Virus record (IMG/VR): IMGVR_UViG_3300011678_000001
Span: 1 to 64,000 of that record
Reading direction: 5' to 3' (one strand)
DNA length: 64,000 nucleotides
From: a virus
Lineage: Duplodnaviria > Caudoviricetes
This document shows, one piece after another, positions 41,293-44,881 of this stretch. The notes beneath the pieces are model-generated. The model saw nothing but the letters and a program-made list of their open reading frames with translations, was not told where the DNA came from and made no database searches. Within the stretch, counting starts at the first letter, position 1, and each line of letters opens with the position of its first letter. A program made the position numbers and the translations under genes.

Positions 41293-41394
41293 TTACAGGT
41301 TGTGGATCTTACGACGCAGATCCGAGTGCTGGTACTTGTCCAGGATGATCGAGGACACTACGACAACCGCAACAGCAATGGCGAAACCTTTCAT
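41293..41394 (-). CDS. 33-aa putative membrane peptide (not in ORF track)
   Basis: MKGFAIAVAVVVVSSIILDKYQHSDLRRKIHNL; TAGGAG RBS. Confidence 0.65.
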   Translation of the reverse strand: MKGFAIAVAVVVVSSIILDKYQHSDLRRKIHNL

Positions 41395-41435
41395 GACAGT
41401 CTCCTAAGACGTATAAGGGTAGGGTGTTGCAGAGG

Positions 41436-41636
41436 TTACTGGGCGTCTGCCGTTTTGGCGTTGGCCATGACCTCTTCCATGAACTTACGGCCCGCTTCGG
41501 TCTTACCGAACTCGGTGACCATTTCTTTGACCGACTTGTTCAACTTACGGTCACGATAGCGCTTGGCAATGAAGCCACCACCAACAACAGCAACCAGACC
41601 GACAGCCGATGCAACCAGAGTAGTAGTAGAAGCCAT
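41436..41636 (-). CDS. Small single-pass membrane protein
   Basis: LVASAVGLVAVVGGGFIA then KRYRDRK; TAAGGAG RBS. Confidence 0.75.
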   Translation of the reverse strand: MASTTTLVASAVGLVAVVGGGFIAKRYRDRKLNKSVKEMVTEFGKTEAGRKFMEEVMANAKTADAQ

Positions 41637-41691
41637 GGTGTTTCTCCTTAAGAACAGGGTACGAGTAGAAGACTATTCTCCTTACTCAACT

Positions 41692-41730
41692 GTACTATGT
41701 ATGGTTGAAAAAAGTTCGAATCAAATCGAG
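41692..41730 (-). promoter_or_regulatory. Putative early promoter
   Basis: Minus strand GATTCGAACTTTTTTCAACCATACATAGTAC, related to the motif at 8179, 44408 and 62653. Confidence 0.45.
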
Positions 41731-41790
41731 CCGGCAAAAAAGCCCTCCTCCAAGAGAGCCCGTTCTGAGGAGGCTCTCTTGGAGGGGCTG
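41731..41790 (-). terminator. Long intrinsic terminator
   Basis: Minus strand: AGCCCCTCCAAGAGAGCC...GGCTCTCTTGGAGGAGGGCT-TTTTT. Confidence 0.75.
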
Positions 41791-41852
41791 ACAAGGTCAG
41801 CAACGGCTAAGGGGAGGGAGATTCCCGGTGCTACACTAAATCATCAACATCA

Positions 41853-42035
41853 TCAACGCTTGACAGGATCGTTCAATACCCAGTGGGCATCGAGCGTGGG
41901 ATAAGGGGGCGGGGCCGCGGCGTCGGTCAGACACCGCTGGAGTATGGGCGGGAGGCTGCGAAAATGCCTCGCCGCTTCGACCTCCGTTTCAGACTGATCA
42001 GGATCGACCGGTAACGGTGCGTCAGTGTCAATCAT
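41853..42035 (-). CDS. Small hypothetical protein
   Basis: MIDTDAPLPVDP... 60 aa; GGAAGGA RBS. Confidence 0.55.
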   Translation of the reverse strand: MIDTDAPLPVDPDQSETEVEAARHFRSLPPILQRCLTDAAAPPPYPTLDAHWVLNDPVKR

Positions 42036-42051
42036 GGCGATTCCTTCCAAG

Positions 42052-42132
42052 CGGAATAGTGGTCAGCCAGGGGCGATGGCCATTGCCTATCGCGCTCCTG
42101 AAGCTGTCCCAGGAGATTTGGTACCTTCTCCT
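42052..42132 (-). ncRNA. Putative structured small RNA, copy A
   Basis: AGGAGA-AGGUACCAAA-UCUCCU hairpin, then CAGC..CAGG..GCGAU-A-GGC-AAUG-GCC-AUCGC..CCUG-GCUG. AAAAAATAAC box 18 nt upstream; CTATTCCG downstream. Confidence 0.65.
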
Positions 42133-42158
42133 ATAATAGTATCCAAGTTTGTTATTTT

Positions 42159-42575
42159 TTACGATTTACGAGGGGGTTGTAATACGTACTTGCCAAACCA
42201 CCATGATAAAGTTGGAGGAAAAACCCGTGCGCTGACGTGGCGTTCAGGATCATAGGGCATCAACGAACCCACCTCTGACTCGTCCACCTCTAGCTGATGC
42301 AGGAGGCTTTGCCACGTCAAGGGCATGGTCAAGGGGGTGACAATAGGGGAGCGGTTCTCAGTCCGACGTCCCGCGCCTTGTTCATTGATGTACGCCATGT
42401 AGATGTCGGTATCTGGCTCTACTTCGGTTAAGGGGGTCAGCATCACGAGCACCATGTGGGTGGCTTCGTTAAAGGTGCTATTGGTGTACTGATCCGTGAT
42501 CACCCCAACCAGGGTATGATTCGGGTTGCGCAAGTCCTTGCCTGTGTAGATCCGGTGTTCGGCTCCGATGGTCAT
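42159..42575 (-). CDS. Hypothetical protein
   Basis: ORF with start at 42575 (GAAGG RBS) or 42608. Confidence 0.65.
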   Translation of the reverse strand: MTIGAEHRIYTGKDLRNPNHTLVGVITDQYTNSTFNEATHMVLVMLTPLTEVEPDTDIYMAYINEQGAGRRTENRSPIVTPLTMPLTWQSLLHQLEVDESEVGSLMPYDPERHVSARVFPPTLSWWFGKYVLQPPRKS

Positions 42576-42602
42576 AAGGCGGCCTTCGCTAAAACGGTAA
42601 GA

Positions 42603-42686
42603 CGGCATAGATGGCAGCTGGAGGCGATGACGAATGTGTCTATCGCTACTCCAGGGCTGCCCAGGGAAGAGTGGTACCTGTTCCCT
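42603..42686 (-). ncRNA. Putative structured small RNA, copy C
   Basis: AGGGAA-CAGGUACCACUC-UUCCCU, then GGCAGC..UGGAG..GCGAU-A-GAC-ACAUUC-GUC-AUCGC-CUCCA-GCUGCC. AAAAAATAAC 18 nt upstream; CTATGCCG downstream. Confidence 0.65.
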
Positions 42687-42712
42687 ACATCATAGTCTAG
42701 CTTAGTTATTTT

Positions 42713-43423
42713 TTACCCTTTTACCACTTTCCCCTTCATCGCATAGGTCGGGAAGGTGTAGGTAGTACCTGCGTGTCCGATCTCTAACCGACTGTCCGTA
42801 AAGAGGTTGAGGTTCATAAACAGGTACCGGGACTGGTCTTCCATCAAGACCCGACGGTCCATCATGGGCCGAAGGACCCTGATCATCCGTTCCTCGTCAC
42901 TTAAGCTCCAGGGCTGCCCAGGCACTAACGGATGCACCTGCATCACCCGCACACTGCCTTTGTCTGATTGGAATGCCAACCGACCTAATCCATAGCGCAC
43001 CATCAAGTCAGCAAAATTCTCAATCGTCTCGCACAACTCGGGACGTGGGGTCTGATAGCGAATGGTATCGTTGAGTTTACTGGGGTAACGGTAGTAGGTC
43101 TCAATTTGTTCCGTTGACAGGTCCAACAAGCTCCTCAGTGCTCCGATCGAGACGAGCCCTACCTGTGTGACCACTTCAAATTTAGCGACCATGGCAGGGT
43201 CGGCATGCGGGCTGACGACCATCCTGACCAAATGCACATTGAGGGTATCCCAGAACTCCTGATCGGGCTCGATAAACTTGTGTGGCTCCAAGTACCCTAT
43301 CAAACAGATGTACCCTGCCCCGGTCGAATACACCGCTACGCAGGAGAAGTGACTCTGAATCTTCTCATCACGTAAGACGTGGGCAAAGTGCAAGCTGTTA
43401 GTGGTCAGGTTAGGGTGCGTCAT
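42713..43423 (-). CDS. Hypothetical protein (paralogue of 43472..44188)
   Basis: 236 aa, GAGGA RBS; shares FA...I.SHF...G.I..GYLEP with its neighbour. Confidence 0.75.
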   Translation of the reverse strand: MTHPNLTTNSLHFAHVLRDEKIQSHFSCVAVYSTGAGYICLIGYLEPHKFIEPDQEFWDTLNVHLVRMVVSPHADPAMVAKFEVVTQVGLVSIGALRSLLDLSTEQIETYYRYPSKLNDTIRYQTPRPELCETIENFADLMVRYGLGRLAFQSDKGSVRVMQVHPLVPGQPWSLSDEERMIRVLRPMMDRRVLMEDQSRYLFMNLNLFTDSRLEIGHAGTTYTFPTYAMKGKVVKG

Positions 43424-43471
43424 GCAGAATCGATCCTCATGCAGGCAAAGAAAAAAGAAACAGCGGCTCTG

Positions 43472-44188
43472 TTATCCTCGCGGAGCCAGCGCGTACAACG
43501 GGATAATGTATTCGCGGTCAATCTCAGGGCTCAAACCTGTGCCAAAGGCGACATGGGCTTTACCGTATAACGAGAGCTTGATCGTGACGTGTTGATCGCC
43601 TTCAACGACTAACTCAGGGCGTTGAAGTAAGGGGGTCAGGAACTTGACCATACGCCGTAGATCACGCGGCTGGGGTTCGGTTAACCGAGGACGGGCATAG
43701 CGCAAGTCCATCAGGTGTACCTGTTCACCGATGTGTTGCAAGGTGACATCGGTGATGTCCCAGACTGCCAGCATGTTGGCCACATCGACCACGGTCCCGG
43801 TCAGGAATTCATCCGCCGGTAAGGCTTGTGCTTCTGCTTGCGCCACCGTAACCAAGGCTTCGTCGGCCATGGTCATGATCATGATGTCATCGTCGCGTCG
43901 CAGGGCCATGAGGTCCCGCACCGCCTTGACCTTGACTGTGCCTTGCTTACGCAGCTCCCTGAAGGCCGCTTCTTTCTCCGGCTCCACCTGATCGGATACA
44001 CTGACCCGTGTAATAAACAAGGTCGCTTCATTCAGGTGACTGATGTCTTCAGGACGGATTTCCCATCCCGGCTCCAAGTACCCTACAAAGACAATTTGAC
44101 CGTACTCTGTCTCGTCGGTCCCGATGGCCACAAAGTGACTGTCTATCCCGACATCCGGGTTAATCTTGGCAAACATAAGTTGCGCCAT
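43472..44188 (-). CDS. Hypothetical protein (paralogue of 42713..43423)
   Basis: 238 aa, AAGGA RBS. Confidence 0.75.
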   Translation of the reverse strand: MAQLMFAKINPDVGIDSHFVAIGTDETEYGQIVFVGYLEPGWEIRPEDISHLNEATLFITRVSVSDQVEPEKEAAFRELRKQGTVKVKAVRDLMALRRDDDIMIMTMADEALVTVAQAEAQALPADEFLTGTVVDVANMLAVWDITDVTLQHIGEQVHLMDLRYARPRLTEPQPRDLRRMVKFLTPLLQRPELVVEGDQHVTIKLSLYGKAHVAFGTGLSPEIDREYIIPLYALAPRG

Positions 44189-44231
44189 GGCAGCGTCATC
44201 CTTTGGCTACAGGTGAGTGAAACTATCCAGC

Positions 44232-44312
44232 AAACATAGGTCCATAGCCGAGGGCGATGGCTATTGCCTATCGCTCACTCGGGCTATGCAAGGGCTGCGG
44301 TACCTGTCCCTT
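44232..44312 (-). ncRNA. Putative structured small RNA, copy B
   Basis: AAGGG-ACAGGUACCGCAG-CCCUU, then CAUAGCC..GAG..GCGAU-A-GGC-AAUA-GCC-AUCGC..CUC-GGCUAUG. AAAAGAATAC box 18 nt upstream; CTATGTTT downstream. Confidence 0.65.
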
Positions 44313-44407
44313 ATACCATTGATCGTTCCAGTATTCTTTTACGATTTGCATCCGTGCCGGCTAGCAAGTAGCGACAATCAAGGGTTAGAAGAGACCCCTT
44401 CACTTAA

Positions 44408-44440
44408 GTGATGTATTGCCAAAGTTGATTCGAATCGAAT
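44408..44440 (-). promoter_or_regulatory. Putative early promoter
   Basis: Minus strand GATTCGAATCAACTTTGGCAATACATCAC. Confidence 0.45.
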
Positions 44441-44455
44441 TTCTATCCCTGTCCC

Positions 44456-44881
44456 TCAGAGGGTCAGTTCAAAGGCCTTGGACGCCTTTAAGGTCGTCTT
44501 CAGGTACTCCCGAGCCTCCTGCTCACCGCTGGCCGAGGTATAGACCTCGATCAGGTCCAAGCCACCCTCTGGGGCGACACTCAATTCGTGGATGGTCCAT
44601 GCTCCGTTGAGCACCATGTACAGATGCTCATGGTCATCCGAGACCACTACTTCATAGACCCATCCGGTGTCCTGATTACCTTCCTTGGCCAGGATGTTGA
44701 GCGTGAGGAGATCACGCTCACAGTTTTGTACAAAGCGTAGGATCGAGTCCACAGCAGTGGGGTGTGCTATACCGGCCCACTGGTTGGCATCGTACGAGAG
44801 TTTTACGGTGTCCACTCCTTGTCCCTCATCGTCATCGGTACTGCGCTTGGGTACCAGAGCACTTACCCTGGTCACATCCAT
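44456..44881 (-). CDS. Hypothetical acidic protein
   Basis: 141-aa ORF. Confidence 0.6.
   Translation of the reverse strand: MDVTRVSALVPKRSTDDDEGQGVDTVKLSYDANQWAGIAHPTAVDSILRFVQNCERDLLTLNILAKEGNQDTGWVYEVVVSDDHEHLYMVLNGAWTIHELSVAPEGGLDLIEVYTSASGEQEAREYLKTTLKASKAFELTL

Follow-up and report, generated by a model that had tools for sequence, protein, structure and literature searches.

Three copies of a covarying two-hairpin RNA cassette with promoter-like and terminator-like flanks in a phiKZ-type jumbo phage

Three cassettes of about 110 bp, all on the minus strand of the 64,000-bp stretch analysed here (the window, bases 1-64000 of IMG/VR virus record IMGVR_UViG_3300011678_000001, which spans 269,790 bp and is judged complete), specify a two-hairpin RNA structure that is preceded by a promoter-like box and followed by a tail resembling that of phiKZ terminators. 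Because structure, promoter-like box and phiKZ-type tail occur together, an RNA of about 80 nucleotides (nt), or a leader, is the natural reading, and on balance we think it somewhat probable that each cassette works as a short, self-contained unit of transcription that gives rise to a two-hairpin RNA of ~80 nt by partial termination and, upon read-through, to the leader of an accessory gene. A small RNA or leader with its own promoter had been proposed in an initial annotation; the structure, box and tail of that proposal are supported by the evidence below, and its start sites and 3' ends keep the status of predictions. The source is a phiKZ-type jumbo phage. Its genome encodes a fragment of a multisubunit RNA polymerase beta subunit, and in the RNA polymerase comparison the nearest named relative is Pseudomonas phage pPa_SNUABM_DT01 (DT01; 85% amino-acid identity), followed by phiKZ, 201phi2-1, Psa21 and the Ralstonia RP phages at ~38-43%. 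DT01 possesses virion and non-virion polymerase gene sets, and phiKZ-like host-independent transcription is presumed for it (PMC8541153).

All three copies present the same elements in the same order, namely a box, an 18-nt stretch with T(A/G)TA at its end, hairpin 1, one unpaired base, hairpin 2 and a tail, and every feature initially described for these minus-strand cassettes was found in its place. The box reads GTAAAA(A/G)A(A/T)(A/T)AC in all three and its distance to hairpin 1 is exactly 18 nt in three of three copies; the stems of hairpin 1 differ (AAGGG/CCCUU, AGGGAA/UUCCCU and AGGAGA/UCUCCU) with AGGUACC in the loop of each, and the fixed gap, the differing stems and the constant loop reported at the outset are thus all present. 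Hairpin 2 has a common apex, GCGAU-A-G(G/A)C-loop-G(C/U)C-AUCGC, on lower stems that differ yet pair, and the tails read CTATGTTTG, CTATGCCG or CTATTCCG. The pattern AGGTACC-N15-40-GCGATAG-N5-15-CATCGC occurs three times in the window versus 0 times in 100 dinucleotide-preserving shuffles, and the whole 269,790-bp genome holds these three copies only. Their parts, in the direction of reading, are the following.

44331..44342, minus strand: copy A box GTAAAAGAATAC, a candidate for a promoter element of the phiKZ middle type, at about -30 to -19 from the predicted start, its place kept in homologues
44290..44311, minus strand: copy A hairpin 1, AAGGG/CCCUU stem and AGGUACC loop; predicted start at 44312-44310 (TATA, then AG)
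44243..44288, minus strand: copy A hairpin 2, lower stem CAUAGCC..GGCUAUG, apex GCGAU-A-GGC-AAUA-GCC-AUCGC
44231..44240, minus strand: copy A tail CCUAUGUUUG, a putative phiKZ-type terminator tail (PMC10914365)
42705..42716, minus strand: copy B box GTAAAAAATAAC, overlapping the TAA stop codon of the upstream open reading frame (ORF) of 236 amino acids (aa)
42663..42686, minus strand: copy B hairpin 1, AGGGAA/UUCCCU stem and AGGUACC loop; predicted start at 42686-42685 (TGTA, then G)
42613..42661, minus strand: copy B hairpin 2, lower stem GGCAGC..GCUGCC, apex GCGAU-A-GAC-ACAUUC-GUC-AUCGC
42603..42612, minus strand: copy B tail AUCUAUGCCG, a putative terminator tail
42151..42162, minus strand: copy C box GTAAAAAATAAC, overlapping the TAA stop codon of the 138-aa ORF
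42111..42132, minus strand: copy C hairpin 1, AGGAGA/UCUCCU stem and AGGUACC loop; predicted start at 42132-42131 (TATA, then G)
42062..42109, minus strand: copy C hairpin 2, lower stem GGGACAGC..GCUGACC, apex GCGAU-A-GGC-AAUG-GCC-AUCGC
42052..42061, minus strand: copy C tail ACUAUUCCG, whose UUCC could base-pair with GGAA in the ribosome-binding site that follows

Each copy folds into two hairpins at -32 to -37 kcal/mol, and the whole copy B unit has a folding z of -4.6. From an alignment of 16 copies (A3, the source of the covariance model R1), RNAalifold returned two hairpins comprising 24 pairs, and both partners vary in 16 of these; in an enlarged alignment of 21 sequences, to which five more complete genomes, located by way of their polymerase gene, contribute, compensatory change is seen in 17 of the 24 pairs. 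Paired cells amount to 96%, versus 29-44% after shifting the partners by 1-3 columns, and the observed covariation was reached in 0 of 500 shuffles, which bears out the covarying stems of the initial annotation. Loops and apex stay invariant while the stems diverge through compensatory change. The GCGAU/AUCGC helix of hairpin 2, which had been called invariant, is indeed present in the three copies; most single-copy phages, namely DT01 and four others in the alignment, carry GCGGU/ACCGC in its place, a compensated replacement, and the claim of invariance falls with it. A coding explanation, including one by the overlapping plus-strand ORFs at 44217-44411, 42456-42695 and 42025-42255, is excluded by the compensatory changes and by loop indels of 1-2 nt between copies. 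Judging from the alignments, the RNA structure is under selection.

Two interpretations at other levels bear directly on these features. Hairpin 2, at ~48 nt with ~20 bp, bulged and with internal loops, could be a processing site of the RNase III type, as in the early region of T7, the more so as an early-type promoter lies upstream; or else GGTACC and GCGAT..ATCGC, which are palindromes at the DNA level, could be operators of a dimeric regulator. Either would leave the conserved tail and box unexplained, and an operator would further have to accommodate a GCGAT-ATCGC half-site spacing that varies from 11 to 13 bp and a one-sided bulge, which an RNA hairpin tolerates and a DNA operator generally does not, as well as U-G pairs that are confined to the cassette strand. 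We regard this pair of explanations as very improbable. The same hairpin had been likened to protein-binding operators of the MS2 type on account of its bulged A. The 5' bulge itself is retained across the family, but it is an A in the three-copy clade only and becomes UA, C, CU or a split A..C in single-copy phages; because its identity is not kept, a contact specific for adenine is improbable for the family as a whole, and the proposed likeness is weakened accordingly. Nor do the neighbouring proteins, which belong to no known family, include a coat-like protein. The GGUACC of hairpin 1 is self-complementary, and the single variant, GGUGCC in a metagenome contig (L055) whose near relative (L098) has GGUACC, stays so through G-U pairing; this is compatible with kissing-loop dimers and lends them very weak support.

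In keeping with its first description as unannotated, the cassette matches no family in Rfam 15: no match at gathering scores was obtained over the whole window, and the cassette region gave weak chance matches only at E <= 10. One such candidate, Polynucleobacter-1, lies upstream of copy A and was rejected at 23 bits versus a threshold of 37. ARAGORN detected no transfer RNA or transfer-messenger RNA in 41500-44800. Comparison of the surrounding 2.8-kb region with a public phage collection by megablast gave no match, and a sensitive blastn against cultured phages found one segment, the cassette of DT01; no flanking gene is as well conserved as the cassette. When IMG/VR was scanned with the pattern, six contigs (L006, L007, L010, L013, L016 and L017) proved to hold true homologues; chance matches were set aside both there (8 of 14) and in a metagenome scan (34 of 41). 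Model R1, whose E-values are rough, finds exactly three copies in this genome, three each in the relatives G001, G002 and G003, two in a fragment (G004), one in DT01 and one each in five genomes at 80-83% RNA-polymerase identity, along with copies in seven metagenome contigs, one of which is the contig of genome G008; besides DT01, some ten metagenomic relatives have a single copy, and wherever a genome has several copies, they share one locus. None was found in four IMG/VR phages at 28-32% RNA-polymerase identity or in phiKZ or 201phi2-1, and the match in Noxifer was not significant (E = 3.8). On the basis of this distribution and of the Rfam searches, the family is specific to the DT01-like clade and absent from Rfam, and the extension to related phages that the initial annotation had envisaged thus yields a defined family with three members here and one in DT01.

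On the 5' side, the box occupies the same alignment columns in 20 of the 20 homologues with upstream sequence. Middle promoters of phiKZ contain AAanTTACc centred about -24 from the start (PMC4666361), and the cassette sequences AAAATAACa, AAGAATACt and AAAACTACc agree with it at 6-7 of 9 positions, a fixed 18 nt before hairpin 1. If transcription were to start at the G or A that follows T(A/G)TA, i.e. at the first base of hairpin 1, the centre of the box would fall near -24, and the resemblance to the phiKZ element near -24 remarked upon initially is present, at 7 of 9 positions at best and with its spacing kept in all 20 homologues. A promoter at the cassette is likely on these grounds. Neither a sigma-70-type promoter nor a canonical U-run terminator was found in 41800-44600, and a sigma-70 reading of the box was rejected as the -35 position would be AAAAAA. 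The box was likewise dismissed as a genome-wide promoter, because regular-expression scans recover essentially the cassettes and two further sites, 214283(-) and 244770(+). The extended start motif T(A/G)TAGG(G/A) is intergenic at 21 of 51 sites versus 8% expected, a five-fold enrichment that, like all our genome-wide intergenic counts, rests on crude longest-ORF gene calls, and it often stands 15-50 nt before gene starts. Enrichment and placement together suggest it as a candidate start motif of the non-virion polymerase, the counterpart of the phiKZ TATG. Examples in the window and the early-type motifs of this phage are as follows.

20281 (+), 39891 (+), 44926 (+), 46604 (-) and 57102 (-)/57119 (+): T(A/G)TAGG(G/A) sites in the window
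44409..44439, minus strand: motif TTCGATTCGAAT-N-ATACATCA, resembling an early-type promoter, with the copy A box ~70 nt downstream of it
231479 (-), 253308 (-), 96311 (-), 100340 (-) and 235010 (-), positions in the whole genome: recurrences of the early-type motif

The form TTCGATTCGAAT-N10-12-(A/T)ACAT(C/G)A(T/C) recurs after terminators and before small genes and is probably the early (virion polymerase) promoter consensus of the clade; a comparable motif occupies the equivalent place upstream of the cassette in most related phages. Outside the window, at ~214150-214300 on the minus strand of the genome, a fourth box unit was seen in which GTAAAAAAGAAC is followed by 19 nt and TATAGGAC, then by the hairpin CCCUUG-UCUU-CAAGGG with an GUAUUUCCUUUUCUU tail and by another box-like sequence, CGTAAAAATAAAC; beyond it lie an early-type promoter and a gene on the minus strand. 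This unit has no R1 match and could represent one more short RNA with a promoter of this class.

The 3' side is best read against phiKZ, in which ONT-cappable-seq mapped 133 termination regions and 61 intrinsic terminators share a GC hairpin followed by TTATKYYGT, the full motif being BCCYCCCCHWWDGGGRRGGBYTTATKYYGT (PMC10914365). Terminators of the present phage are built alike, with a GC-rich hairpin and then directly YTATG(C/T)(C/T)G instead of a U-run. The sequence TATGCCG is intergenic at 26 of its 47 genome sites versus 8% expected, nearly always directly after a GC-rich hairpin, and this substantiates the likeness between cassette tails and the terminators of this phage that had been noted at first. 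More broadly, a strong hairpin precedes 45% of TAT(G/T)YYG sites versus 15% of random sites. Where genes converge, both strands carry the motif, which forms a perfect palindrome, CGGCATA-hairpin-TATGCCG, and a promoter role would be pointless there. Sites of this type in the window, and the cassette of DT01, are the following.

12294 (+), 17317 (-), 21390 (-)/21416 (+), 31881 (+) and 39732 (+): terminator-type sites
45682 (-)/45709 (+), 46576 (-), 57130 (+) and 62709 (-): further terminator-type sites
~41,470-41,480 of DT01 (MW735835): predicted 3' end of its RNA, within CUAUGCCG or directly past it; the predicted start is the G/A of ATGTA|GGGG at ~41,394-41,396, and the gene downstream (PA10_00042) encodes 65 aa

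TAT(G/U) is retained in all cassette copies, 2-4 nt past hairpin 2, the tail fits a TTATKYYGT-type motif in 27 of the 27 family members seen, and CTATGCCGT, CTATTCCGC and CTATGTTTG agree with TTATKYYGT itself at 6-8 of 9 positions. Hairpin 2 together with its tail is therefore a likely phiKZ-type terminator.

In the reading that we prefer, the phage's own multisubunit RNA polymerase would transcribe each cassette from a phiKZ middle-type promoter, with a box of the form GTAAA(A/T)AA(A/C)TA(A)C ~24 nt upstream and the start at the first base of hairpin 1. The RNA would fold into hairpin 1, one unpaired base and the long bulged hairpin 2 with its conserved apex, and hairpin 2 with the adjoining YUAU(G/U)YYG would function as a phiKZ-type intrinsic terminator to release an RNA of ~80 nt. 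Upon read-through, the same structure would become the 5' leader of the following accessory gene, and the hairpin 2 site would be an attenuator, either fixed or regulated. That the AGGUACC loop and the apex are both fixed points to a single common partner acting in trans, most likely a protein, which would bind both and could set the ratio of termination to read-through or be the target of the free RNA. Structure, conservation, copy number and motif matches are shown directly by the sequences; we infer transcription, RNA ends, partial termination and the binding partner from sequence features, and the literature searched holds no transcriptome for the DT01-like clade. A more specific version, in which the two-hairpin RNA is a dedicated regulatory RNA of a nucleus-forming-type jumbo phage, either a termination switch of the phage polymerase that is worked by binding of a phage or host factor, or a multi-copy decoy of a host protein that acts through the AGGUACC loop and the apical stem, possibly with loop-loop dimers, strikes us as tentative and rather unlikely; the termination switch, if true, would make it the first known riboregulator of a non-canonical phage polymerase of this sort.

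The genes around the cassettes supply a second line of evidence. In each copy, a ribosome-binding site and an ATG follow 15-55 nt past the tail, and the ORFs concerned are these.

43472..44188, minus strand: 238-aa ORF, which copy A would serve
42713..43423, minus strand: 236-aa ORF, a tandem paralogue of the 238-aa ORF without its own cassette
42159..42575, minus strand: 138-aa ORF, which copy B would serve and which exactly fills the interval from the copy B tail to the copy C box
41853..42035, minus strand: 60-aa ORF, which copy C would serve; ribosome-binding site GGAAGG, then ATG

The 238-aa and 236-aa products share 25% identity (E = 4e-15), and the flanking proteins have no match in Pfam, PHROGs or the protein Atlas. 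Five related complete genomes lack a homologue of the 138-aa ORF; those of them that have copy B carry a terminator after it. In three relatives (L007, L016 and L017), a hairpin and U-run stand no more than ~35 nt past copy B and lead straight into the copy C box, such that copies B and C start 165 nt apart with no plus-strand ORF of at least 40 aa between them, and in the two contigs L055 and L098 a long hairpin with a U-run and then an early-type promoter come after the sole copy, the gap before the hairpin being at most ~10-35 nt over all five contigs. The RNA unit thus persists without a gene to serve while accessory genes come and go at its borders, and the ORF-less copies favour an RNA as the product.

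These same copies, separately terminated and persisting in two lineages, speak for the idea that the released RNA is the real product and acts in trans as a sponge, decoy or riboregulator, its position in front of genes being incidental; three paralogues with identical loops would then raise the dose or avoid recombination. It would also suit the compensatory divergence of the stems around invariant loops and apex, and the fact that the cassette outlasts its flanking genes and is the sole recognisable part of the 2.8-kb region in DT01. Set against this are the ribosome-binding site and ORF placed 15-55 nt after most copies with no promoter between, a bulge that is not conserved, and the failure to find a target or partner: with 78 sites in 270 kb, GGTACC shows no enrichment, and the apical hairpin occurs at no other site of the genome. 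We consider this trans-acting reading doubtful. One version of a decoy, a mimic of CRISPR repeats, received no support, as a scan of 185,579 species genomes for the apical hairpin returned five single, unrelated chance matches, no CRISPR arrays and no cassettes, a result that does not prove absence given that the host of the phage is not identified. The best of the five, in a Gemmatimonas metagenome-assembled genome (L063 5417-5495), is a long perfect palindrome with GCGATAGGCAATGGGCCATCGCC and lacks the GGUACC hairpin and the box, and was put down to chance likeness.

Changes of gene content bear on yet another possibility, that of portable promoter-plus-terminator punctuation similar to the promoter early stem-loop (PeSL) elements of T4-type phages, whose repeats would mark or create accessory-gene borders by homologous recombination and whose hairpins would serve only for termination and mRNA stability. 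Cassette borders are exactly where gene content changes: only in this genome does the 138-aa ORF stand between copies B and C, the interval from A to B holds two paralogues here versus one ~230-aa gene and a possible 50-aa ORF in the close relative examined (L016), and the ORFs downstream of the cassette are unrelated between clades; PeSLs, as composite promoter/terminator repeats, have been implicated in similar indels (PMC2839356, PMC4122927). However, the ordinary terminators of this genome are short perfect GC hairpins of free sequence, whereas a loop of 7 nt and an apex of ~20 nt in the cassette do not change between paralogues or clades, a constancy that a plain terminator does not need, and recombination mediated by repeats is impossible via the cassette in single-copy genomes. 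Punctuation of this kind is in our view improbable.

Two stem-loops one unpaired base apart, immediately after a promoter-like element, are also what a processive antiterminator resembling put of phage HK022 would look like, with the hairpins binding the polymerase and carrying it through downstream terminators, and a strong terminator does stand directly after the ORF-less copies. A terminator behind a termination-cancelling element with no gene between would, however, be purposeless, the terminator tail sits on hairpin 2 itself, no Rfam match was obtained at E up to 10, and the target of put is the beta' subunit of the bacterial enzyme, whereas a divergent phage polymerase is expected here. 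We judge antitermination to be most unlikely.

Several points weigh against the favoured reading of partial termination within a self-contained unit. Hairpin 2 is long and bulged and is separated from TAT(G/U) by 2-4 nt, as opposed to the 0-1 nt usual for terminators of this phage; and because ORF-less copies are followed by a second, canonical terminator, hairpin 2 alone would not stop all polymerases. The tail could instead start the downstream mRNA rather than end a small RNA, or might do both, since the late-promoter core of phiKZ is TATG with G as +1 (PMC4666361); the TATT of copy C fits the terminator motif and not the late promoter, which argues against such a role for that copy. The box is rare, with only ~5 sites in 270 kb, and is no general promoter motif in this phage, and the early-type promoter found ~70-110 nt upstream in most genomes means that the hairpins could merely belong to a longer early leader. 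The aligned sequences are paralogues and close relatives, so independent compensatory events are few, far fewer than the cell counts suggest, and a further alignment (A4) was fitted to the model. Finally, the family members are all metagenomic, DT01 being the sole exception.

That exception makes the family tractable, as DT01 is cultured, infects Pseudomonas aeruginosa and has a single copy of the cassette. The cassette exists in natural test forms, i.e. in three copies, in one copy and without an ORF, and its structure is compact and well defined; it could show how jumbo-phage polymerases start, stop and perhaps regulate transcription, and could provide a compact promoter-terminator part for the engineering of such phages. 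Model R1 could seed an Rfam family.

Among known systems, the operators of MS2 and PP7 have in common with hairpin 2 a 5'-side bulge 3 bp below a loop of 4-6 nt, but there is no homology, the identity of the cassette bulge varies, and no coat-like protein or known partner is present. The put elements of HK022 similarly consist of two adjacent stem-loops after a promoter, an architecture compatible with that of the cassette; again there is no homology, and put acts on bacterial RNA polymerase. T4-type PeSLs are short repeated promoter and stem-loop units that flank variable small ORFs of an accessory region, with indels at their borders (PMC2839356, PMC4122927), and at the cassettes the 138-aa ORF is an indel at the B and C borders and the A-B interval differs by one paralogue. 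This likeness is functional and does not extend to homology: a PeSL joins an early promoter of host type to a terminator stem-loop, and conserved loops have not been described in it, whereas in the cassette the promoter-like element comes first and the loops are conserved.

The closest parallels are found in phiKZ-like phages. The cassette box, A-rich, ending in (T/A)AC and located 18 nt before hairpin 1, resembles that of phiKZ middle promoters, though it matches at 7 of 9 positions at best and is rare here, and the start motif predicted for the cassette is T(A/G)TA(G/A) as compared with TATG in phiKZ. The tails fit TTATKYYGT, a motif type used genome-wide in this phage as in phiKZ, while typical terminators are short GC hairpins, unlike the ~48-nt bulged hairpin 2 with its conserved apex and a tail 2-4 nt off. 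In phiKZ, premature termination in 5' untranslated regions (5'UTRs) produces abundant short RNAs, with 42 terminators in 5'UTRs and 17 candidate 5'UTR-derived RNAs, and an RNA of ~71 nt before PHIKZ221, where more than 90% of transcripts are prematurely terminated, was confirmed by northern blot (PMC10914365); 11 such small RNAs are known in 201phi2-1 (PMC11512511). In the PHIKZ221 5'UTR (NC_004629 ~223,850-223,952; L109 28850-28953), we find TTATGTTGT ~45 nt before the start codon and, upstream of it, TATGTAG followed by a possible 5'-terminal hairpin, GUAGUA..UAUUAC. To our knowledge, neither a function nor a family model nor support from covariation exists for any of these early-termination RNAs of phiKZ and 201phi2-1. 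The cassettes resemble them in coming from a jumbo phage that has multisubunit RNA polymerases of its own and in the succession of a start, short hairpins, a hairpin with a TTATKYYGT-type tail and a co-directional gene ~20-55 nt on, the putative terminator lying between the predicted start and the downstream gene. They differ in sequence and structure, without homology and with no R1 match in either phage, and in forming a family, so far known from sequence, of three diverged copies with fixed loops and covariation, with and without an ORF. Short RNAs of a similar kind are thus already known in phiKZ-like phages, and the cassette RNA family itself is new, its novel features being a covariation-supported family, loops that are invariant against diverging stems, triplication, and occurrence both with and without an ORF.

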